Assembly: GCA_031379665.1 (NCBI GenBank)
Contig: JANNFI010000046.1
Coordinates: 33,899 to 97,898 of the forward strand
Length of the DNA stretch: 64,000 nt
Reading direction: 5' to 3'
From: Ignavibacteria bacterium
GTDB lineage: Bacteria; Bacteroidota; Ignavibacteria; UBA10030; SZUA-254
The notes beneath the pieces are model-generated. The model was given only the letters and a program-made list of their open reading frames with translations. It did no database searches and was not told the DNA's origin. The position numbers and the translations under genes were made by a program. Of this stretch, positions 2,639 through 61,523 are shown piece after piece; positions within the stretch are counted from its first letter, which is position 1; each line of letters opens with the position of its first letter.

Positions 2639-4393
2639 TCAGACCGTCCTGCGGAGCAGGACGAGTGTGATGTCGTCCGTCTGAACGCCGGTGACGCTCC
2701 AGCCGGTCACGGCATCCACGATCGACCGTCTGAGTGCGTCCAGCGGCACTGTCCGCGAGTCGCGTACGATCGCGTCGAGCCTGTCCTCGCCGAACTCCTC
2801 CCCCGCGGGGTTCATCGCCTCGGTGACGCCATCGGTGTAGAGGCAGATGGTGTCGCCGTGTTCCAGCGTTACCGTCCCCTGCTCATAGGGGCGCATCGTG
2901 GGCATCACCCCCAGAATCAGGCCTCCGTCGTCGAGCCGTTCGAGGCTCCCGTTGTTGCGGCAGAGGATCGGCGGGTTGTGTCCGGCGTTCACGTAGGTGA
3001 AGCTCCCCGTCCCGGGCTCGAGGATCCCCCAGAAGAAGGTGATGAACCTCCCCTGGGTGGTATTCTGCGTCATCAGGTCGTTGACCCTGCCGGTGAGCTC
3101 GGAGAGGGTCAACCCGAGCGGCACGAGCGCCCTGATCGATGCCTGCAGGCTGGCCATCAGCAGTGATGCCGGCGTGCCTTTGCCCGAGACATCCCCGATG
3201 GCGATGACCCACCTGGTCACACCCAGCGGAATAACGTCGTAGTAATCCCCACCCACCTGCCGGGAGGAGATGTTGACGGCCGAGATCGCGTAGCCGGGGA
3301 GGTCCGGCAGGTCGGCCGGGAGCAACCCTTTCTGGATCTCCTTGGCGATCAGCAGCTCATCCTCCATTTTCTGTTTCTCGAGCGCCTCCCGGAAGAGCCG
3401 GGTGTTCTCGAGAGCGATGACGGCGAGATTGCCGAGGGAGGAGAGGAAATCGAGGTCCGCCTGGGCGTACGGTATGTCGTTCATCCTCCCCCCGACCCCA
3501 AACACACCCTTCAGTTCGTTCTGGGCCCTGAGGGGGATCACCGCCTGGATGCCGAGACCCTCGAGGTGTCGCCGCGTCGCGCGATCGGATGATCGCTCCA
3601 GGGTTTCCACCGTCCGGGACTCCTTCATCCCCATGAGGTAGGGGACGAGGTCCTCAGGTACATCCGCGTCGATCCGTTTGAGCACGTGCACGAACCGTCC
3701 CTCGCGCACGAGGGAGAGAAAGCACTTATGGGCGCCGATCTGGCCCATCACCGAGAACATCAACAACTTCACCATCCGCTCCGGGTCGAGGACCGCGTTC
3801 AGCTCCTTGCTCAACTCAAACAGGGTGTTGAGTTCCTGGATTTTCCGGCTGAGCTTCCTGTTCGCGGCGTCCACATCGGACCAGGCGGTGGCCCTCACGA
3901 TCGAAGTGGCGGCGATGTTCGCAAGGGACATCAGGTACTCTTCCTGTTGCGCGGTGAGCTCCCGCCCAAGCGCGCTCGACGAGAACCCCAGCAGGCCCAC
4001 GATGCGGACCCCCTCCGTCATCGGGATGAGGGTCTGGATCCCGTGTGAGCGAAACGCCCTGACCCAGGGGTATTTCCTCGCGTCGGTGTCCCCGCACCGG
4101 ATGATTCGCCTGGGGATGCGCTTCATTTTCATCGCCGTGCCGACGAGGTCGGGCTTGAGCCCGCGGACGTTCTGGATCCTGAATCCCTCCTCCTCGCTAC
4201 CGAGCAGTACGATGCCGCGCAAGGCCAGGAGTTTGCCCATCACCGTCAGGAGCAGGTGCCCCAGGATGAACGTGAGGTCGGTGGACGAGTTGATGATGGA
4301 GCTGAATTCGAAGAGCGAGCGGAAGTCGAACCGTCGCTCCATCTCCTGGGAAGACGACGACGGAGGCGGGATTGTCGCGGAGGTTCGTTTCAT
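2639..4393 (-). CDS. Soluble GAF-GAF-PP2C (SpoIIE/RsbU-type) serine phosphatase.
   Basis: Two GAF-like regions followed by a PP2C signature (GDVSGKG, GGDYYD, YTDGVTEA). Confidence 0.8.
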   Translation of the reverse strand: MKRTSATIPPPSSSSQEMERRFDFRSLFEFSSIINSSTDLTFILGHLLLTVMGKLLALRGIVLLGSEEEGFRIQNVRGLKPDLVGTAMKMKRIPRRIIRCGDTDARKYPWVRAFRSHGIQTLIPMTEGVRIVGLLGFSSSALGRELTAQQEEYLMSLANIAATSIVRATAWSDVDAANRKLSRKIQELNTLFELSKELNAVLDPERMVKLLMFSVMGQIGAHKCFLSLVREGRFVHVLKRIDADVPEDLVPYLMGMKESRTVETLERSSDRATRRHLEGLGIQAVIPLRAQNELKGVFGVGGRMNDIPYAQADLDFLSSLGNLAVIALENTRLFREALEKQKMEDELLIAKEIQKGLLPADLPDLPGYAISAVNISSRQVGGDYYDVIPLGVTRWVIAIGDVSGKGTPASLLMASLQASIRALVPLGLTLSELTGRVNDLMTQNTTQGRFITFFWGILEPGTGSFTYVNAGHNPPILCRNNGSLERLDDGGLILGVMPTMRPYEQGTVTLEHGDTICLYTDGVTEAMNPAGEEFGEDRLDAIVRDSRTVPLDALRRSIVDAVTGWSVTGVQTDDITLVLLRRTV

Positions 4394-4411
4394 CGTCCGG
4401 GGGGGGCTGTC

Positions 4412-4852
4412 TCAGCCCTTGGGGAGCAGTTTCACGAGGTGCACCTCGTATGTCGCGCCGTCCCCCTGGCGGTAGTACACCCTGTCCATCAGTGAACGAA
4501 TGAGGTGCAGGCCGAGGCCTCCCTTCCGATAGTGCGCGAGGTACTCCTTCATGTCGGGCGCCTTGATGTTGTCCGGATCGAACGATTTTCCGTCGTGCGT
4601 GATTACGATCTCGATTTCCTTCTCTCCCGGTATGACCCTGATGTCGATCTCCCGGTCGGGGGAATTGGCATAGGCGTGCTTGATCACGTTCGTGCAGGCC
4701 TCGTCGCAGCAGAGGGCGATCTTGTGCACCGCGTCGTCGCGGAACCCGAGATCGCGGGCGCAAGCGGAGACGAAGTCCCTCACCTCCCGGAGCCGGTCGG
4801 TGCGGCTCTTGATCTTCAGGTGGGTGCTGGCCGGTTTTTGTCTGGCGTTCAT
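4412..4852 (-). CDS. RsbW/SpoIIAB-like anti-sigma factor serine kinase (HATPase_c_2).
   Basis: ALCCDEACTNVIKHAY and GGLGLHLIRSLMD motifs. Start taken at the internal Met (MNARQ...); the track ORF extends further 5'. Confidence 0.7.
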   Translation of the reverse strand: MNARQKPASTHLKIKSRTDRLREVRDFVSACARDLGFRDDAVHKIALCCDEACTNVIKHAYANSPDREIDIRVIPGEKEIEIVITHDGKSFDPDNIKAPDMKEYLAHYRKGGLGLHLIRSLMDRVYYRQGDGATYEVHLVKLLPKG

Positions 4853-4880
4853 GCGTTCGCCTGGATGATCGATGATCGTC

Positions 4881-5237
4881 CTACTTCGCGCCGGCCTGGA
4901 ACTTGCGAATCGCCTCGGCTTCGTCGTTCGTGATTTCATACAAAAGCGGGAATCCGAGGAGGTCGAAGACGTTGAAGACCTTCGGGGACATGTTCGACAG
5001 CTTGATATCCCCCTTGTTCCTCCTGACGTCTTCGATGTACGCCATAAAAACCCCGAGGCCGGCGCTGCTGATGTAGGTCAGATCGGCGCAGTTCACCACG
5101 ATCCGGTACCTGTTCCTGTCGATCAGCGACTGGAACGATTTTTCCAGTTCGGGCGCGGTGTGGGCGTCGAGGTACCCCTTCAGGTCGAGGACGTTCACGT
5201 CGTTCGTTTCCCGCAGTTCAATTTTAAATGAGCTCAT
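4881..5237 (-). CDS. STAS-domain anti-sigma factor antagonist (RsbV/SpoIIAA-like).
   Basis: LDLKGYLD...LTYISSAGLGVF STAS core with a conserved phosphorylatable Ser context; start at MSSFKIEL. Confidence 0.8.
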   Translation of the reverse strand: MSSFKIELRETNDVNVLDLKGYLDAHTAPELEKSFQSLIDRNRYRIVVNCADLTYISSAGLGVFMAYIEDVRRNKGDIKLSNMSPKVFNVFDLLGFPLLYEITNDEAEAIRKFQAGAK

Positions 5238-5267
5238 ACCGGGTCCTTTGGTTGATGGTGCCATGTA

Positions 5268-7407
5268 TCAGGTTGCGTTGCCGTCTATTTTTTTCCATTT
5301 CAGGACGACGATCGTGAGGTCGTCCTCGGGGGGCCTGTGGTGCATGTGGATGTCGACGGCGCGCACGATGTCATCGCGCATGTCGAGGGCGCTCTTTCGT
5401 CCCGATCGGGCGATGACCTCCTCGAGTCGCTCATATCCGAACTCCTCACCGCCCTCGGGCCGGGCCTCGGTGATGCCGTCGGTGTAGTACACGGCGATGT
5501 CGCCGTCGCAGAGCCGGATTTCGTCCTCGGTGATCGTGCGGGCAAAGAATTCCTTCGAACCCATCCCCACGCCGAGGCCCGTCGGCTTGATGAGCCGCGT
5601 CCCGTCCTTGGAGAGGAGGATCATCGGGCAGTGGCCGGCGCGGGCCACGCGCATCGTTCCCGTCCTGATGTTGATGATCGAGTAGATCAGGCTGATGAAG
5701 GTCCGTTTGTCCATCGTCCCGAGAAGCGCGGCATGGGCCTGGGAGAGGAACTCCCTCGGGGACCGGTGGAGCTTGCTGAGCGCCTGGAAGATCCCCTTCA
5801 TCTCTGCCATGAACAACGCGGCCGAAACGCCCTTCCCTGAGACGTCGCCGACGATCACCCCCAGGTGGTCGTCGTCGAGCATCGTGAAATCGTAGTAATC
5901 GCCCCCTACTTCGAAAGCCGGGGTGGACAGCGCCTCGATCTCGATCTCCGGGAGGGACGGCAGCTCCTGCGGCAGGAGTTTCCGCTGCATTTCCTGCGCG
6001 AGGAGCATCTCGCGCATCAACCTTTCGCGCTCGAGCGATTTTTCGATGAGCCTCGAATTTTCCAGCGCGATGGTCACCTGGTCGGCGAAGGCCGAGATGA
6101 CGTCGGCGTCCTCGCGGTCGAACCCGAAATCCATGGTTTTCGTCGCGTAGAGCACGCCGATCACGTCGTCGTGCGACACCAGGGGCACGATCACCATCGA
6201 GTGGATCTTCTTGCCGATGTTCCTGATGTGCCTGGTCCGCCCATCCTCCCTCACCTGGTCGATCACCACCGGCTTCCGGCCGTCGATCACGAGGCGCCTC
6301 AGTGAGCCGTCGTTCATCCCGGTGATCTCCTCGATCTCCCCGATCGAGATGTTCTGCAACGCCACAGTCCGGAACGCCGGCGGCGCGGGGGCCGCCCGGT
6401 CGTGTCCGCGGGCCTGGGCCGCGTCCCGGGGGATCACCTCGAGCCACGCGCTCTCCGCCTCGCAAACCTCGAGGGTCATCTTCGTCACCAGGTCGACCAG
6501 CTCGTTGAAGTCGAAGACCCTCGTCACCAGTTTGCCGAGGTTGTGGAGCGAGAGGACCTCGATGCTCTTCCGGTCGTATGCCTCGGCTGTCGGCAGGTGG
6601 AACAGCGTGCTGACGAAGGTCATACCGAAATAGATCGCCGCGAACAGGTCCATGGCCGCCACCGCGGTGGAGAGCTGGCGGGAGTAGTAGGTGAGCGACT
6701 GCGCGATCACCGAACTGTCATCAACGGATGCCACGTAGATCGGAACGTAGAGCGCGAAGAGGATGAAGCTGAACGCCATCGTGAGCAGCTTCTCCCGCTT
6801 CGACAGGTAGACGATCCAGGAGAGCCGGAAGGAATTCAGGAGGATCGCCCCGACGGTGAGGCCGAAGCTAACGGCGATGAGCAGATCCGATTCGAACGGC
6901 CGGTAGGGAACTGTGATGGCGATGGTCGTCAGCAGGAGGACGAGGAAGAACCTGAAGTTCCGCTTGGTCTCCTTCTTCCGCTTGGACATGATGATGTCGC
7001 GCAGCGTGAGGAGGATGAAGAGCGACGTCGTCCCGAAGACCACGGCGTAGATGTTCGCGAACACCACCGATTCGAACCCCTCGGGGAGGGCGACTTCGTT
7101 CTTGATTACAAAGCCCGTCGAGGACACGCCGTACAGCGCCAACCCCGCCAGCCCCACCACGAGCGTCAGCACCAGCGCGAACCCGAGCTTCCGCACGACG
7201 TTCTGGTCGCGGCGCCAGACGGTCTCGATGTAAAAATAGAGTGAGAGGAAGGCCCCGACGACGAGCAGCGCCTGCAGGATCGTGAGGGCGCCAAGCTCGA
7301 CGTCCAGCTTCGAGGCCACGACGTCGACCACGAACTTCGCGATGAACAGGAACCCGCTCACCGAGAGGAGGAGTGCCTTCTTCAGCCTGATTCTACGATC
7401 GGTCATG
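5268..7407 (-). CDS. Membrane-anchored (multi-TM N-terminal sensor) GAF-PP2C serine phosphatase, RsbU-like.
   Basis: About 300 aa of hydrophobic helices, then a GAF-like region, then PP2C motifs (GGDYYD, GDVSGKG, YYTDGITEA). Start at Met 7405-7407; the track ORF is N-terminally over-extended. Confidence 0.75.
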
Positions 7408-7417
7408 GCGGCCCGCG

Positions 7418-8764
7418 TCAGAGTTTGACCCTGATCCAGCTGGTAGACCTGAATTTCAGGAAGTTCATCGTCGAGTAGGCGACAATGTACACCGGGAGGG
7501 CGAGCCACGAGCCCGTTACCCCCCATCCCAGCACGATACCGAAGACGTACGTCAGGGGAAGGAAGATGATCCAGTGGGTCAGGATTTCCACCCACATCAC
7601 ATAGACTGTCGCGCCGCCGGCTTGCAGGGCGTTCGCAAAAATGATGCCCGACGAGTAGAACACCTGGGCGATCCCGGCGATCCGGAGGATCGGTCTGGCG
7701 ACGTCGATGACTTCAGCGTTTGTCGTGATGATGATCAGGATGAGGTCCGGCACGAGGCAGAAGATCAGGCCAACCGCGAGGGTGAAGATTGTCCCCAGCT
7801 TCGCCGTCTCGAAGCCGTACGCGTGGGCGCCCTCCACGTCGCCCTTTCCGAGCGACTGACCGACCAGCGTCTGCGCGGCGATGCCGAAACCGAACGACGG
7901 CATCAGGGATATGAAAATCGCCGATGTCACGACGTTGGTGGCCGCCTGTTCCACCGTGCCGATCCAGCCGGTGATTGCCACGAACGAGAGGAACCCAAGA
8001 AGGATCAGGATGTTCTGGAGCGACACAGGAATGGATATTTTGACTATCTGGGCGATCGTCTCCCTCGAGATGCGGAAATGAGAGTAATACTGATATTTCT
8101 TTCGATAATCCCCGAGAAATGTTACACCGACGAAAAAAAGCCATCCCAGGGCCATACTGAGCGAATATCCGAGCCCGGCGCCCGCGAGCTCCATCCGGGG
8201 AAAGCCGAAGGCCCCGAAGATGAGCACATAATTAAACAGGATGTTGAAGACGTTGACGATGATGGCCGAGAACATGAAAATCTTCGTATGGCCGATCCCG
8301 AAGAAGAAGCCACGGTATGACACGATCAGGAGGAAAAACGGGAGTCCGATGAACTGGTACTTCATATACTCCGACCCTGCGACCGCGACGGCCTGGTCGG
8401 CAGAGAAAAAATTGAGGATGTCGTAGGAAAACATGAAACCGAGGATGCCGGACACGATGCCCAGGAAGAGGCAAACGACGAGCGAATTGTTGAGGACTTC
8501 TCCGACCCCCCTGTGGTCTCCCTCTCCGTGCCGCCGGGCGACGTACACGTGGGTGCCGGTGCTCAGGCTCGAAAAGAGGCTTGCGATCGCCCAGGAACCG
8601 AGGAACCCCAGGCCCATCGCCGCGAGCTGGACTTCGGTATTCTCGAGCCGCCCGACCATGGCTGTATTCACCACGGAGACGACCATCTGTGACGAGAGGC
8701 CGGCGATCGCGGGAGTCGCGATCTGGAGAATGTCCCGGACCAGATTTTTCCGCAGTGTCAGCAT
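7418..8764 (-). CDS. MATE family efflux transporter.
   Basis: 12-TM profile, 448 aa, typical MATE N-terminal LxxIAxPxI and repeated halves. Confidence 0.85.
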   Translation of the reverse strand: MLTLRKNLVRDILQIATPAIAGLSSQMVVSVVNTAMVGRLENTEVQLAAMGLGFLGSWAIASLFSSLSTGTHVYVARRHGEGDHRGVGEVLNNSLVVCLFLGIVSGILGFMFSYDILNFFSADQAVAVAGSEYMKYQFIGLPFFLLIVSYRGFFFGIGHTKIFMFSAIIVNVFNILFNYVLIFGAFGFPRMELAGAGLGYSLSMALGWLFFVGVTFLGDYRKKYQYYSHFRISRETIAQIVKISIPVSLQNILILLGFLSFVAITGWIGTVEQAATNVVTSAIFISLMPSFGFGIAAQTLVGQSLGKGDVEGAHAYGFETAKLGTIFTLAVGLIFCLVPDLILIIITTNAEVIDVARPILRIAGIAQVFYSSGIIFANALQAGGATVYVMWVEILTHWIIFLPLTYVFGIVLGWGVTGSWLALPVYIVAYSTMNFLKFRSTSWIRVKL

Positions 8765-56741: not shown

Positions 56742-57476
56742 ACATCCTCCTACAAGGATTGAGATGAATTGTGGATTAGTGAATTTAGTGGATGGTTGGT
56801 TTTAATTTTCGAATGGACAAACAGATCCGACCGGGTCGAGGTGACCCGTGAACTTGATTCGGGGAAGGAACTGGGATGGAGGAACGGATAAAACTTTTTC
56901 ACAAGGATTATCGTGTTGTTCTCCAACGGACGTTGATTGCTGACATGGATTACTAAAAGTATTGTACAAAGCCGGTGTTAGGAGCCGGCAAGCCGACGAA
57001 GTAGAACTCTCGTTAGTACTGGTATGAGGATAAATTAATCAGCGGTGAACCTGTCCGAGAAAAAAATCGATCGTGAACGCTTAAAAGGTGTGGAGTGAAG
57101 GGACGCATGCTGTCCCGAATACAGACGAATTGTAACAAATCTCTCCCTCAGTGTCAAGTAATTTGTAATAAATTAAGCCATTAGGCATTATTTTTCTGGA
57201 AATTGGTCGGGAACGAATTTCCCGTTCTGCGCCTATCCCCTTCTCCGGGGCCGGTCCCAGGAGGGAGCTGAAAAAAATCGCGAACCACCGGACGTACATC
57301 GCCCGTATCGGACGAACGACGAATATTCGGCATTCTGGTCCGGATTCCTCATTTCATCAAAAAATTGGGGGGGAAGGTACCTATCTATAGTATGTTCATC
57401 CACGACCGGTGTCCCGATGCGTGAATGAATGTGGCAGCAGGCTCCGCCACGGACAACCCGGCGATCGAGGGAAAAT

Positions 57477-57506
57477 AAAAAAACCCGCGCTTTGGCGGGT
57501 TTTCGT
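57477..57506 (-). terminator. Rho-independent, bidirectional-looking terminator immediately 3' of tRNA-Asp.
   Basis: AAAAAAA-CCCGC-gctttg-GCGGG-TTTT. Confidence 0.5.
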
Positions 57507-57511
57507 GAAGT

Positions 57512-57586
57512 GCGGGGTCGACGGGACTCGAACCCGCGACCTCCTGCGTGACAGGCAGGCGTTCTAACCAAACTGAACTACGACCC
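57512..57586 (-). tRNA. tRNA-Asp (anticodon GTC).
   Basis: Manual fold: acceptor GGGGTCG/CGACCCC, anticodon stem CCTGC/GCAGG, loop CTGTCAC, T-loop TTCGAGT. Confidence 0.85.
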
Positions 57587-57699
57587 CGGAGGAAACGCTG
57601 AAAAATGATTCAGGTGTGAACGATTGCGGATCAATATAGTGAAACTGGATTTACTTTCCAATAGGATTCGTCGCCTGAGAGCGGCACCGTGGGGCCCCT

Positions 57700-59091
57700 T
57701 TAGGAATCGGACAGGCGTATGAACGCGCTGGGGTTGATCACCCTGACCATCAGGTCGTAGTCCTTGTAGGTCTCATAGACCGCGTTGAGACCCTCGCAGA
57801 ATTTCCGCCGTTTGTCCTTCTGAACGGTATAGCGGCAGACGAGGATCGATTTCCAATCGTTCATCAGCGCGCTGTCGAGCCGGATCATATGGTCCAGCTT
57901 CCCGCGTTGGGCATAGTACAGAAGGCTGCTGTGGATCTCCTGTGCAATGGTCTTCTCGCGGAAAATAAGACGCTCGACGTGCCTGACGTCCCGCCCCTTG
58001 GCCTGAACGTGTTTCGATTCCCGCTCCGAGGTGCGGACCTTCCCCTCCTGGGTGATCGCCGGCAGTTTGATAATGTGCTCGTCGAAGACGAACACCTCGA
58101 CCTCCCACTCCGTCGCGTCGTGGGCGTCGATGAGCGTCCTCAGCAGGTCGACGTAGCGGTCTTCGATCATCCGGCTTACGTCCCCGATCCCCCTGAAAAT
58201 CGACCAGGCGTTGATCGGCACGACCACCTCGGCGGTCCTGAGGAGATTGATGATTTTTTCGTGGTCGTACTTGAACCAGACGGACTTCTGCGGTTCCAGG
58301 GTGGGTTTCCCCCCCTTGTCGGCGATGTAGTCGGATGCGGTCAGCTTGCTGACATAGAATCGTATGTCGCCGTAATCGAGGAGGAATATCTCGTTCTTCC
58401 GATCGAACCCCTTGAGCGTGAGCTTCTTCGTCGGAACGCCCTTCCCCGAGGTCTCGGGGGCGTAGCAGAATCCGTAGAGATACACCCAGTCGTCCGTCCC
58501 GAGCTGAATGTCCATCGGCTCGGTGGGAAACAATTCGCGGGTCCCGAAATGCTCCATGATCGAGGCGGCCGCCGGTTTGCCCGCATGGGGAATTTCGTAT
58601 GTGGAGGGGACCTCCGGGGGGGTGAGGATGCGTGGGGCTTTTTCCGGGTCGACCGACTTCGCATGAATCTTCTTCCGGGAATCTTCGGCCTTGCGGGCCT
58701 CATCCCTGCGTGCTTCCTCGGCCTTCTTCTTCTCCCCTTCCTTTCGTGCTTCCTCCGCCTTCCGCAGTTCCCCGGCCGTCCTCACCGCTTCCGCCTCCCT
58801 CACCTCGCGGACCTGCTTCTCGTGGAGCATCCTGCGGTCCTCCTGCTCCTTCATCGCAGTGGCGATTTCCTTCTCGGCCCTGATGTCCTGTTCCATGAGA
58901 TTGATGAGGAGGTCGCGCATCTGCGCCGAAAGGAGGCTTTCGAACTGCTTCACAAGCCGTTCGGCCACCCTTCCAGGGGGGAGGTTGGAGAATCCTTCGA
59001 GCTGCCTCCTGAACGTCTCGTTTGCGCCGAGACGCTCGAGGAGCTCTCGCAGAAGGGTATCTGAAAATTTATGTCGTTCTTCGTTTGTCAT
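57700..59091 (-). CDS. GvpL/GvpF-family-like protein with a long Lys/Glu/Arg-rich coiled-coil N-terminal extension.
   Basis: Central DDWVYLYGFCYA...LLDYGDIRFYVSKLTASDY...EVVVPINAWSIF resembles the GvpL/GvpF core (YLYG..., GDLAAVVSxVP, VLPMRFG.VF). Start moved to MTNEERHKF because the longer ORF would overlap tRNA-Ser. Confidence 0.45.
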   Translation of the reverse strand: MTNEERHKFSDTLLRELLERLGANETFRRQLEGFSNLPPGRVAERLVKQFESLLSAQMRDLLINLMEQDIRAEKEIATAMKEQEDRRMLHEKQVREVREAEAVRTAGELRKAEEARKEGEKKKAEEARRDEARKAEDSRKKIHAKSVDPEKAPRILTPPEVPSTYEIPHAGKPAAASIMEHFGTRELFPTEPMDIQLGTDDWVYLYGFCYAPETSGKGVPTKKLTLKGFDRKNEIFLLDYGDIRFYVSKLTASDYIADKGGKPTLEPQKSVWFKYDHEKIINLLRTAEVVVPINAWSIFRGIGDVSRMIEDRYVDLLRTLIDAHDATEWEVEVFVFDEHIIKLPAITQEGKVRTSERESKHVQAKGRDVRHVERLIFREKTIAQEIHSSLLYYAQRGKLDHMIRLDSALMNDWKSILVCRYTVQKDKRRKFCEGLNAVYETYKDYDLMVRVINPSAFIRLSDS

Positions 59092-59106
59092 CGTTCGGTC
59101 CGGTTG

Positions 59107-59188
59107 CGGAGGGTGAGGGATTTGAACCCCCACGTCCCGAAGGACGGCAGTTTTCAAGACTGCTGCCATACCATTAGGCGAACCCTCC
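59107..59188 (-). tRNA. tRNA-Ser (anticodon TGA), type II with a long variable arm.
   Basis: Manual fold: acceptor GGAGGGT/ACCCTCC, anticodon stem GCAGT/ACTGC, loop CTTGAAA, variable hairpin CGTCCTTCGGGACG, T-loop TTCAAAT. Confidence 0.85.
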
Positions 59189-59277
59189 GGGTCTTCCCCG
59201 CGCACGCGGGAGCGACAGGGTAATCCTAAACTGGAGGGTCAATATAGAGAAAAGGGTGTGCGAAATCAATACGCGGT

Positions 59278-60183
59278 TCAGCCGATTTCGGTCATCAGGA
59301 CCCCCGCCAGCGTGATCCCGGCGCCAAGCAGGAACCGGGTGGTGAGCGCGTCGCCCAGGAAGAGCCAGGCGAGAACCATCGTGAGGATCGGCTGGATGTT
59401 CGCGAAAACGGCAACCTTACTGGGCGGAAGCTTGCCGAGCGCGTAATACCAGATGAGGTACGCCACGATCGACGTCGCCACGGCGAGGTAGACAATCCCC
59501 CCCACGTCCGCCGTCGTGAGGGCGGAGTAGTCGAAACCGGCGGCCTGGACGATACCGAACGGGAGAAACATCGCCATCCCCCAGACGAGGGTCACGGATG
59601 TGGCGTGGAGCGGACCGTATTTCACGATCATCTCCTTCCCCAATACCGAATAGAATGTCCACGCGACGACGGCGGCGAGGAGGAGCGAATCGCCGTAGAG
59701 CGTCTCAGCCCCCAGATCGAGGCCGCGTTCGAACACCACCAGGAGGATGCCGGCGAAGGCGACGAGGACCCCGCCGAGTCGCAGCACCGAGGGCTCCTCT
59801 TTTTTCATCAGAACGGAAAGGAGGAGGACGAGCGCCGGCGTGGCGCCGTAGAAAAGCGCGGCGTTCGTGGGCTTCGACGCGTGGAGCCCCGTGATGAACA
59901 GGAACTGGTTCAGTGGAACGCCGAGCGCGCTCAAGAGCAGAAACCGGTTCCTGTCCCCGCGATCGACGGTGAGGGCGCGCCCCCTCGCCAATGCCATCCC
60001 GATGAGGATCGTGCCCGCCAGTAGCGACCGCAGGAACGTGAGCGTCACCGGGTCGACGGCGGTGAGTGTCGCCTTTGCGACGATGTGGGTGCCGCTCGCA
60101 AGGAGCGACTGGAAGAGCATAATGAGGTAGATGAGCATCGTCAGCGTCCCCAAGATACCGAGTTCTCCGATGGGAACAAACAT
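59278..60183 (-). CDS. EamA/DMT-family transporter (10 TM).
   Basis: Two EamA-like halves, hydrophobic throughout; the true start may be the Met at 60138. Confidence 0.75.
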   Translation of the reverse strand: MFVPIGELGILGTLTMLIYLIMLFQSLLASGTHIVAKATLTAVDPVTLTFLRSLLAGTILIGMALARGRALTVDRGDRNRFLLLSALGVPLNQFLFITGLHASKPTNAALFYGATPALVLLLSVLMKKEEPSVLRLGGVLVAFAGILLVVFERGLDLGAETLYGDSLLLAAVVAWTFYSVLGKEMIVKYGPLHATSVTLVWGMAMFLPFGIVQAAGFDYSALTTADVGGIVYLAVATSIVAYLIWYYALGKLPPSKVAVFANIQPILTMVLAWLFLGDALTTRFLLGAGITLAGVLMTEIG

Positions 60184-60200: not shown

Positions 60201-61523
60201 ATGGCTGTTGAATATGGTATGTTCACCCCGAGCCGAATGGAGTCTTGGAAGAAAAATCTTTACGTCCTCTGGGGCACGCAGTTCCTGGCCATGGTGGGCG
60301 TCAACCTCATTGTCCCCTTCCTCCCCTTTTACATCCGCCAGCTCGGCGTCACCAACGACCAGGAGCTGGCGCGCTGGAGCGGCGTGATTTTCGCCGCCCC
60401 GTTCCTCACCGCTTTCATCGCGACGCCGGTCTGGGGGGCCCTCGGTGACCGGTACGGCCGCAAGCTGATGGTCGTACGGGCGATTTTCGGGCTGGGTCTC
60501 TCCCAGATCCTGATCGGACTCTCAGGTGACGTCTACCAGCTCCTGGCGTTCCGTCTCCTCCAGGGTCTCATCAGCGGATACATCGCCGCTTCGCTGGCGC
60601 TCGTCTCGATCAGCACGCCGACCGAAAAGATCGGCTACGCGCTCGGCCTGCTCCAGACGGCGACGGCCGGCGGGACGGTGCTCGGCCCCGCCATCGGGGG
60701 TATCCTCGCCGACTTCATGTCGTACCACGACATCTTCTTCATCATCGCGGCGATCTGCGGCCTCGGCGGCCTGCTCATCATGAAAATGGTGCGCGAGGAA
60801 GTACGCCCGACCCCGGAGGGCCCCCAGCCGACCGTGCTGGAGAACATCCGCTTCGTCGCGACGAACAGGAAACTGCGGACGATCGGGATCCTCATCCTCC
60901 TCGCGCAGGCCGGCGCCCTGATGATCGAGCCGATCTTCGCCCTCTTCATCGAGCAGTTCAAGACTTCGACCAAATACCTCTCGACCCTCGTGGGCGTCAT
61001 CTTCTCGATTGCCGGGATCTTCATGGTGATCTCGGCGCCCTGGTGGGGAAAGCGGAACGACCGCATCGGGTACAGAAAAAACCTGACCATAGCCGCGTCG
61101 GGCACCGGGCTGGCCTACGCCGCCCATATGCTCGTCCCCGGGCTCATCTCGCTCGGGTTCCTGAGGGCCGGCCTCGGATTCTTCCGTGGCGGCATTCTCC
61201 ACTCGCTTTTTTCCTTGACGAGCCGCCACGTCCCTGCCGCGCGCAGGGGCGGGATCATCGGCATCGTGTCGAGCCTGGCGATTCTGGGAAATTCACTCGG
61301 ACCGCTCGCCGGCGGGTTCATCGCGGAACGCTTCGGGATCATCCCGGTCTTCAGCGTCAACAGCGTGATCTTCCTCCTGATCGCGGTGACCGTCTGGCGA
61401 TCGGATATCGACCGGGTGGTGAACGGATCAGCGATGGGGGGCTCCCAAACCGAACCGGTCGTACCCGGCCAGCCCACCCAGCCGACATCCCCGATCGCCC
61501 GCGACGCTGACGGCCCGGCCTGA
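60201..61523 (+). CDS. MFS transporter.
   Basis: 12-TM profile, GDRYGRK motif in loop 2-3 typical of MFS; the start may be a downstream Met (60219 or 60237). Confidence 0.8.
   Translation: MAVEYGMFTPSRMESWKKNLYVLWGTQFLAMVGVNLIVPFLPFYIRQLGVTNDQELARWSGVIFAAPFLTAFIATPVWGALGDRYGRKLMVVRAIFGLGLSQILIGLSGDVYQLLAFRLLQGLISGYIAASLALVSISTPTEKIGYALGLLQTATAGGTVLGPAIGGILADFMSYHDIFFIIAAICGLGGLLIMKMVREEVRPTPEGPQPTVLENIRFVATNRKLRTIGILILLAQAGALMIEPIFALFIEQFKTSTKYLSTLVGVIFSIAGIFMVISAPWWGKRNDRIGYRKNLTIAASGTGLAYAAHMLVPGLISLGFLRAGLGFFRGGILHSLFSLTSRHVPAARRGGIIGIVSSLAILGNSLGPLAGGFIAERFGIIPVFSVNSVIFLLIAVTVWRSDIDRVVNGSAMGGSQTEPVVPGQPTQPTSPIARDADGPA

Follow-up and report, generated by a model that had tools for sequence, protein, structure and literature searches.

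A solitary long GvpL/GvpF-like protein encoded directly downstream of a tRNA-Ser gene in Ignavibacteria

The window analysed here is a stretch of 64,000 nucleotides from an Ignavibacteria bacterium. The locus under study contains a protein gene located between a tRNA-Ser(UGA) gene and a tRNA-Asp(GUC) gene on the same strand (Table 1), and both tRNA genes, already recognized in the preliminary description, were confirmed by ARAGORN and Rfam. In the ORF list, the protein gene appears as an ORF of 501 aa (57700-59205, minus strand) with a GTG start codon overlapping tRNA-Ser. This start was rejected because of the overlap and because 17 of 17 homologues in our alignment (A1) begin at the MTNEER position. 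The ATG at 59091 (MTNEER...) corresponds to the start in all of these homologues and gives a protein of 463 aa, and the distance from the 3' end of tRNA-Ser to this ATG is 14 nt in the window. The peptides VYLYGF, GDIRFYVSKLTASDY and VVVPINAWSIF, which had been quoted for this protein, are all present in the translation.

Table 1. Positions of the genes, protein regions and predicted signals at the locus (window coordinates)
Feature	Position	Strand	Basis and remarks
Promoter-like site P1, TTGATT-17-TATATT, upstream of tRNA-Ser	59241..59269	-	Promoter scan
tRNA-Ser(UGA), type II, no encoded CCA	59106..59188	-	ARAGORN; Rfam RF00005, 57.6 bits
Long GvpF/L-like protein gene	57700..59091	-	463 aa + stop; ORF list, start from alignment A1
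Conserved helical N-terminal domain, family-defining	58867..59091	-	Residues 1-75; kept in both clades
Low-complexity spacer	58564..58866	-	Residues 76-176; composition, AF2
GvpL/GvpF-homologous two-lobed alpha+beta core	57730..58485	-	Residues 203-454
Deletion scar of small partner ORF	57662..57687	-	Start codon (now GTG) joined to its last ~24 nt
Promoter-like site P2, TTGGAA-17-TATATT, upstream of tRNA-Asp	57633..57661	-	Promoter scan; conserved in loci L017, L013, L010
tRNA-Asp(GUC)	57512..57587	-	ARAGORN; Rfam, 72.6 bits
Intrinsic-terminator-like hairpin and T-run after tRNA-Asp	57479..57504	-	Terminator scan; conserved in loci L017, L014, L013

The C-terminal part of the protein had been proposed to be GvpL/GvpF-like, and a check of the HHpred type against PF06386 was positive. 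The Pfam match reached 50.9 bits (E = 2.8e-13, cutoff 23.6), and residues 203-454 were aligned with profile positions 2-237 of 245. When A1 was compared by hhalign with 27 canonical GvpF/L proteins, each confirmed as PF06386, a probability of 99.6% was obtained (E = 2e-24, 248 columns). The best Foldseek matches were the GvpF structures 4qsg and 6l5d (E = 7e-9). These three matches are far above chance, and the core has the two-lobed alpha+beta fold of the GvpF crystal structures. Since a search of the PDB sequences with the family profile recovered no GvpF at E ≤ 1, the homology is shown by Pfam, hhalign and the fold search. The C-terminal ~260 residues are thus homologous over the whole domain to GvpF/GvpL (PF06386; 4QSG from Microcystis, 6L5D from Anabaena), and the mid-domain EW-V-V motif is retained. 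On the other hand, the global structural superposition on GvpF is poor (TM 0.40), the canonical C-terminal SGPWPPYxF is absent and the protein ends in VINPSAFIRL. The family has motifs of its own, SIMEHFGTRE just upstream of the core and MxDWKSIL within it, and the protein is nearly double the canonical size (~250-290 aa), the extra length consisting of a conserved 75-aa domain at the N-terminus and a long spacer. The homology of the core to GvpF/GvpL is genuine, but the sequences are very diverged.

The N-terminal domain alone gave no significant Pfam match (RecC_C at E = 0.012, below the cutoff) and no meaningful PDB match, and a homologue search with its profile returned only four short fragments. 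The preliminary description had assigned a K/E/R-rich coiled coil to the N-terminus. A K/E/R/A-rich helical stretch does exist, but it occupies residues ~76-145, behind the 75-aa helical domain, and the coiled coil itself was not upheld. The spacer is predicted to form a single E/A/K/R-rich helix up to residue ~137 and to continue as a P-rich, disordered segment; the AF2 model has a helix at 39-137 and pLDDT below 50 at 140-176. Residues 104-140 contain one Leu among E, A, K and R, and, judged from composition rather than by a dedicated predictor, hydrophobic residues are almost absent from the heptad positions; conserved hydrophobic a/d heptads were not found. The DNA coding for the spacer carries 36/18-nt repeats (repeat D1), and in A1 the spacers of the orthologues vary in length and composition, with P/E-rich sequence in this place. 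Because heptad hydrophobics are scarce and the segment is replaced in orthologues, the K/E/R-rich segment is, as far as composition and alignment tell, an ER/K single-helix-type spacer rather than a conserved coiled coil. Several weak database matches were rejected: Pfam CIS_TMP and DUF6739 were below the cutoff and located on the spacer, and a PADLOC match to TmtA (E = 0.005) falls on the same low-complexity region.

A profile search of 1.84 billion representative sequences yielded 70 clusters (50% identity) at E ≤ 1e-30, the complete members of which are mostly 400-600 aa long. The same N-terminal domain, linker and core were found in 15 of 15 distant cluster members that were read. Lower-ranked matches were short (about 250-290 aa) and scored 36-58 bits, and 27 of 27 sampled among them are canonical PF06386 proteins. 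The approximately 70 clusters of the long architecture are all from MAGs of Ignavibacteria/Bacteroidota, and in the loci examined their genes are always solitary. Relatives are named "GvpL/GvpF family gas vesicle protein" at NCBI. From the comparison with the closely related locus L017, dN/dS values of 0.08 overall, 0.05 for the core, 0.06 for the N-terminal domain and 0.15 for the spacer were calculated, and the long GvpF/L-like gene is therefore under purifying selection.

To follow the gene through its relatives, 23 species-representative loci were compared, with protein identities going down to about 40%. In 22 of the 23 loci, the gene is immediately preceded by tRNA-Ser(UGA) on its own strand; this count describes relatives carrying the gene and is silent on those without it, since the gene itself served to retrieve the loci. 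The order MFS, EamA, tRNA-Ser and the gene is kept down to about 45% protein identity. Identities of the core, EamA and MFS proteins, in this order, are 90/85/87% for L017, 80/72/72% for L012 and about 45-57/42-49/60-67% for distant loci, so that the divergence of the gene is in step with that of its EamA and MFS neighbours. In a second clade of the long subfamily, no tRNA gene occurs within 8 kb. Because of the tRNA-Ser linkage in 22 of 23 species and the divergence tracking EamA and MFS, the gene is, from these sequence comparisons, a vertically inherited core gene and not a recent insertion.

These observations bear on the earlier suggestion that the gene was acquired horizontally as an islet integrated at a tRNA gene. 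The position between two tRNA genes agrees with it, and so does the presence, in some lineages, of SRAP, DUF72 and TPR genes between the gene and tRNA-Asp, which indicates that this interval accepts insertions. However, no direct repeat of either tRNA end was found over 57200-59500, where the only repeat common to both ends is a 17-nt promoter box. Pfam scans of the window detected no integrase, transposase or other mobile-element gene, and the tRNA-tRNA interval holds one gene. The composition is native-like, with a GC3 of 0.78 against 0.75-0.86 in the neighbours and a GC content that is also neighbour-like. Searches of the phage (INPHARED), plasmid (PLSDB) and IMG/VR collections returned no homologues, PHROGs gave no match for the protein, and PADLOC gave no meaningful one. 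An empty site, with tRNA-Ser and tRNA-Asp separated by 6-127 nt, was likewise not seen in two exact-pattern scans of metagenome contigs, a weak negative. Neither patchy presence nor foreign composition nor discordant divergence, the marks of a genomic island, was seen among the gene-retrieved loci. Conservation of the gene between these tRNAs in relatives had been named beforehand as evidence against acquisition, and it was observed for the tRNA-Ser linkage in 22 of the 23 gene-retrieved loci. Horizontal acquisition of the gene by integration at a tRNA is, on this evidence, extremely improbable.

The arrangement of the tRNA-Ser gene and the protein gene suggests that they form a tRNA-mRNA co-transcript. 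The gap between the two is 12-14 nt in the window and in all seven close loci examined, and the promoter scan detected no promoter-like site between tRNA-Ser and the ATG. Promoter-like boxes, P1 and P2, are present upstream of the two tRNAs and share a 17-nt repeat (repeat D4). The -10 region of P1, TTTTCTCTATATT, is conserved in many related loci, and in 14 of 22 junctions (the window and 13 loci) the box precedes tRNA-Ser by about 45-55 nt. The terminator-like site after tRNA-Asp is the only one on the minus strand between P1 and that point. The co-transcript is suggested because of this 12-14-nt gap, the promoter-like boxes upstream of the tRNAs and the single terminator after tRNA-Asp; the two genes lie on the same strand with a minimal gap and no promoter or terminator between them, and the arrangement is conserved. 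More distant loci have wider gaps, of 25-208 nt and once of 576 nt, which would accommodate separate promoters. The unit would read P1, tRNA-Ser(UGA), the gene, a small ORF (deleted here), P2, tRNA-Asp(GUC) and the terminator. The gene would most likely be transcribed from the tRNA-Ser promoter and its mRNA freed by tRNA processing, so that a leader as short as about 14 nt would remain. The thrU-tyrU-glyT-thrT-tufB operon of E. coli is a mixed tRNA-mRNA operon, in which, as here, a protein gene is located directly 3' of a tRNA on the same strand, the promoter lies upstream of the tRNA, and no promoter or terminator intervenes. In contrast to that operon, the unit described here is predicted from sequence, its product is no translation factor, and the gene is followed by another tRNA that has a promoter of its own.

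In relatives, a conserved ORF of 60-75 aa was found by tblastn 10-50 nt downstream of the gene in 16 of the 23 species loci. It matches no Pfam family. The same search did not find it in the window, where the DNA alignment with L017, L013 and L010 has a clean gap of about 190 nt at the scar. Since this partner ORF is missing here and in six other species, it cannot be an essential client of the long protein.

The preliminary description had reported no other gas-vesicle genes nearby, and this holds for the 64-kb window: Pfam scans of 30 ORFs detected no Gvp family, and tblastn with three GvpA/B sequences returned nothing. Nor were gvp genes found within 6-10 kb in some 30 related loci representing two clades. 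The gvp genes are normally clustered, as in Halobacterium, Anabaena, Bacillus and Serratia. The protein might nevertheless be a genuine gas-vesicle assembly factor whose partner genes (gvpA, N, G, J, K etc.) are located in parts of the genome beyond the window, since it passes the PF06386 threshold, its relatives bear a gas-vesicle name at NCBI, and the accessible text of the literature mentions green sulfur bacteria (Chlorobiaceae) that form gas vesicles. We consider this unlikely. The normally clustered partners were not found in the 64 kb or in the related loci, and in none of the loci examined does the gene stand beside gvpA or another gvp gene. The PF06386 score is 50.9 bits as compared with 195 for the first canonical member scanned, and canonical E values go down to 1.8e-64. 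The conserved SGPWPPYxF end has been lost, the N-terminal domain and spacer are absent from canonical GvpF/L, and no report of gas vesicles in Ignavibacteria appeared in the accessible text of the literature searched.

A function unrelated to gas vesicles had also been put forward for a solitary homologue. The gene is solitary in the window and in every related locus examined, and for this reason a role outside gas vesicles, as a scaffold or chaperone by analogy, is plausible; the first part of that proposal stands as observed and the second at this strength. The precedent offered for it, GvpF-like proteins in carboxysome and phage contexts, found no support in PHROGs or in a literature search, which returned no relevant GvpF-like protein outside gas vesicles. 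In gas-vesicle systems, GvpF and GvpL are chaperone-like and scaffold binders of small helix-forming partners, and they bind GvpA and GvpG/J/S/K (PMC11445434). By analogy with them, the core would have a small helical protein as its client, in the ancestor the 60-75-aa product of the ORF just behind the gene. Docking or oligomerisation elsewhere would fall to the N-terminal domain, with the spacer keeping the two ends apart, and the protein would work as a tethering or chaperoning adaptor outside gas-vesicle formation. Tether proteins with spacers, such as TolA and TonB, and ER/K single-alpha-helix spacers are known. The likeness to these is one of design: two conserved end domains are joined by a long, extended low-complexity linker, which is either E/K/R/A-rich and helical or P-rich, and which is retained even as its composition drifts. 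Unlike TolA and TonB, the protein has no transmembrane segment or signal peptide, and there is no sequence or structural homology to them.

The linkage to tRNA-Ser(UGA) could instead reflect an RNA- or tRNA-related role, with the ferredoxin-like lobes binding RNA. The S6-like matches that would point in this direction are generic for beta-alpha-beta folds, and neither the core nor the N-terminal domain is basic (pI 6.7 and 5.5). The Ser and Asp codon usage of the gene revealed no tie to the flanking tRNAs; UCA accounts for only 1 of its 23 Ser codons. The clade without a tRNA within 8 kb also argues against such a role, and a borrowed tRNA promoter is the simpler account of the linkage. An RNA-related function is accordingly very unlikely. 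Our preferred reading is that the gene belongs to a previously undescribed long GvpL/GvpF-fold subfamily, confined to uncultured Ignavibacteria/Bacteroidota, vertically inherited, embedded in a tRNA unit and encoding a protein with an adaptor role, and to this reading as a whole we give an even chance.

A broader possibility, rather doubtful at present, is that the GvpF/L fold is not gas-vesicle-specific and that the long Ignavibacteria branch, with its spacer serving as a kind of ruler between N-terminal domain and core, acts on its own in tethering or chaperoning small helical proteins or an intracellular assembly of another sort. Its genes would then be tied to a tRNA promoter and thereby expressed constitutively and in step with growth. 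Current understanding stays as it is unless experiments follow. The conserved tRNA-Ser-gene junction, with its gap of 12-14 nt, makes an attractive candidate case of an mRNA released by tRNA processing, in a phylum that has been little studied. Gas vesicles cannot form without GvpF and GvpL, yet the biochemical role of these proteins has been described only as "chaperone-like" or "scaffold". A core dN/dS of about 0.05 in a protein that lacks gvp neighbours and has acquired a docking domain together with a spacer suggests a more general partner-binding function of the fold. The long subfamily offers a simpler one- or two-gene system for studying partner binding by the GvpF/L fold, and if its members do act as stand-alone tethers, their study could reveal how GvpF and GvpL act biochemically.

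The interval 57477-59188 holds one protein gene between two tRNA genes, everything on the minus strand (see table). In A1, an alignment of 18 members of the long family, the 17 homologues beside the window protein all begin at the ATG at 59091 (MTNEER...), and the gene was therefore set from this codon. A mechanical ORF call had started at a GTG inside tRNA-Ser, and was rejected because of these homologues.

Features of the interval, its surroundings and related loci
Feature	Position	Strand	Remark
Partner-switching module	2639-7595	-	
Run of same-strand genes	13837-56741	-	
Conserved non-coding stretch	56742-57226	-	upstream of 1796-aa T9SS protein gene
Near-consensus promoter TTGACA-17-TACAAT	57128-57159	-	in conserved non-coding stretch
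Hairpin AACGGGAAATTCGTTCCCG	57208-57226	-	in conserved non-coding stretch
Terminator-like hairpin	57479-57504	-	
tRNA-Asp(GUC)	57512-57587	-	
Promoter-like site TTGGAA-17-TATATT	57661-57633	-	upstream of tRNA-Asp; also an overlapping 16-nt-spacer register
Remnant of small ORF	57662-57687		start codon and last ~24 nt
Long GvpF/L-like protein gene	57700-59091	-	463 aa; start set by homologue alignment
tRNA-Ser(UGA)	59106-59188	-	
Promoter-like site TTGATT-17-TATATT	59269-59241	-	upstream of tRNA-Ser
EamA transporter	59278-60183		flank of gene
MFS transporter	60201-61523		same flank as EamA
PolA gene			predicted by synteny with related loci beyond MFS; would run off window end
Small ORF copies	L017:7410-7625; L010:7392-7595; L012:9399-9602		related loci

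PF06386 matched residues 203-454 with 50.9 bits (cutoff 23.6; E 2.8e-13), covering profile positions 2-237 of 245. When A1 was compared by hhalign with A2, which comprises 27 canonical GvpF/L proteins of 250-290 aa (27/27 confirmed as PF06386), the match spanned the whole canonical domain with a probability of 99.6% (E 2e-24). The AlphaFold2 model showed a mean pLDDT of 73, mostly 80-90 in the core except for two loops of low confidence (351-366 and 401-406), and its sole significant Foldseek matches were the GvpF crystal structures 4qsg and 6l5d (E 7e-9 to 1e-7). By these three comparisons, the protein is GvpL/GvpF-like. No Gvp family was found among the 30 window ORFs scanned, and GvpA-type queries had no match in the window; the preliminary description of a solitary homologue with no other gas-vesicle genes nearby was thus borne out. 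The relation to canonical GvpL/GvpF is distant, because GvpF was missed when PDB sequences were searched with a profile, the global TM-score of the model against GvpF structures was only 0.40, and the C-terminus reads VINPSAFIRL where canonical proteins have SGPWPPYxF. Against PF06386, the first canonical member of A2 scored 195 bits, and the best E-values went down to 1.8e-64.

Three parts were visible in the alignment. Residues 1-75 form a conserved helical domain (N-domain) for which neither Pfam nor PDB gave a significant match, and residues 177-463 comprise the GvpF/L core together with a conserved SIMEHFGTRE motif. The residues between them, ~76-176, are E/A/K/R-rich in the window protein and its close relatives, and were predicted by AlphaFold2 as a single long helix that ends near residue 137 and gives way to a disordered stretch. 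Since this part lacks heptad hydrophobics and is P/E-rich and of other length in more distant orthologues, its sequence reads as a conserved spacer and not as a conserved coiled coil, and the N-terminal coiled coil proposed earlier is not supported. Against L017, the closest species representative (86% identity), dN/dS was 0.08 overall, with 0.06 for the N-domain, 0.15 for the spacer and 0.05 for the core.

A filter-only HMMER search against 1.84 billion representatives yielded 160 clusters at E<=1e-3, 70 of them at E<=1e-30. Complete clusters were mostly 400-600 aa, and the N-domain, a long (often P-rich) linker and the core were present in 15/15 distant clusters read. Short proteins (about 250-290 aa) lower in the list scored 36-58 bits only, and those sampled were canonical PF06386 (27/27). 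Two clades can be seen in the family, that of the window with 46 proteins at 90% clustering and a larger one with >150; the named sources of both are Ignavibacteria/Bacteroidota MAGs. NCBI already names some members "GvpL/GvpF family gas vesicle protein".

A scan with a single genome for each GTDB species gave 23 loci, retrieved through the gene itself; their sources are exclusively MAGs of uncultured Ignavibacteria, Bacteroidota or "Chlorobiaceae". In 22 of these loci, the gene directly follows a tRNA-Ser(UGA) gene of the same strand, and in 17, tRNA-Asp(GUC) lies 0.1-5.7 kb downstream. The recurring order in relatives is PolA, MFS, EamA, tRNA-Ser, the gene, tRNA-Asp and a giant T9SS protein; in the window, the flank opposite the transporters starts with the gene of a 1796-aa T9SS-sorted protein, the first in a long row of such genes. 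Core identity varies in step with the identity of the neighbouring EamA and MFS genes (core/EamA/MFS: 90/85/87% in L017, 80/72/72% in the related locus L012, about 45-57/42-49/60-67% in distant loci). The composition of the gene is native-like, no repeat of either tRNA end was found around it, none of the 30 ORFs scanned matches an integrase or transposase family, and phage, plasmid and IMG/VR collections contained no homologue. From this synteny, matched divergence and lack of mobile signatures, the hypothesis of a horizontally acquired tRNA integration islet fails, with the supporting loci all retrieved through the gene. Two pattern scans, both insensitive, found no empty tRNA-Ser/tRNA-Asp site.

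The linkage to tRNA is specific to the window's clade, as the three second-clade loci that were examined (L036-L038) have no tRNA within 8 kb. All three carry a convergent Zn_ribbon_21 (PF14255) gene of 61-76 aa, 4 nt beyond the stop, and two have a divergent upstream trio of an ECF sigma, a zf-HC2 anti-sigma and a YgaP-like TM protein.

Between the 3' end of tRNA-Ser and the ATG lie 14 nt in the window; the seven close loci that were compared have 12-14 nt. Both promoter-like sites share a 17-nt box, TTTC[A/T]CTATATTGA[T/C]CC on the minus strand (57628-57644 and 59236-59252), which is probably the -10 region of the lineage's tRNA promoters. Its tRNA-Ser version is kept across many species, and the TTTTCTCTATATT element upstream of tRNA-Ser was found again in many loci. 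The sole terminator-like site on this strand here follows tRNA-Asp. The simplest reading of this arrangement is that tRNA-Ser and the mRNA would be co-transcribed, and tRNA processing enzymes would then cut the mRNA free. The 3' CCA of tRNA-Ser(UGA) is encoded in L012, L016, L022 and L027, not in the window (59106) or most other loci, and therefore the maturation route of this mRNA-abutting tRNA may differ between close relatives. In L010 (Logan contig; 78% protein identity), tRNA-Asp ends right after the anticodon and is followed by unrelated sequence (7654-7694); possible causes are a chimeric assembly and an insertion within the tRNA gene.

A conserved ORF of 60-75 aa, a putative partner, was found 10-50 nt past the gene in 16/23 species loci (consensus ...DTFEWY.ST......F....R.Y..TLRSEDERQRFVE...); it matched no Pfam family. 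Every close relative carries it, and six species besides the window are without it. In the window, a clean ~190-nt deletion took it out, leaving only its two ends.

Beyond tRNA-Asp, strong conservation was also seen in the non-coding stretch that precedes the gene of the 1796-aa T9SS protein. The conserved leader of this gene, ~370 nt, holds GAAAATTAAAACCAAC.ATCCACTAAATTCACTAATCCACA (56770-56810) and a GGAGGA Shine-Dalgarno, and may be a regulatory 5' UTR. The almost unbroken run that follows has about 15 genes of 278-1796 aa; eleven encode T9SS sorting domains (Por_Secre_tail or FlgD_ig), BNR/Sortilin/PSII_BNR propellers are present in several, and four are without any Pfam match. The partner-switching module consists of two GAF-SpoIIE (PP2C) phosphatases, a HATPase_c_2 anti-sigma-type kinase and a STAS protein.

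For gas vesicles, GvpF has been described as the primary, chaperone-like GvpA binder, and GvpL as a scaffold contacting GvpJ/S/K (PMC11445434). By analogy, the core of the present protein probably binds small helical proteins, and the N-domain and ruler-like spacer, as additions to it, would point to a tethering adaptor. As about 30 loci all lack a gvp neighbour, a role in gas vesicles is disfavoured, and a gvp set dispersed elsewhere in these genomes seems improbable. The tRNA linkage would suggest an RNA-related role; this has little support, as both end domains have an acidic to neutral character and no such linkage was seen in the second clade, and we favor the adaptor. Overall, we see in the protein a new variant of the known GvpL/GvpF family with a distinct architecture, encoded within a tidy putative tRNA operon.
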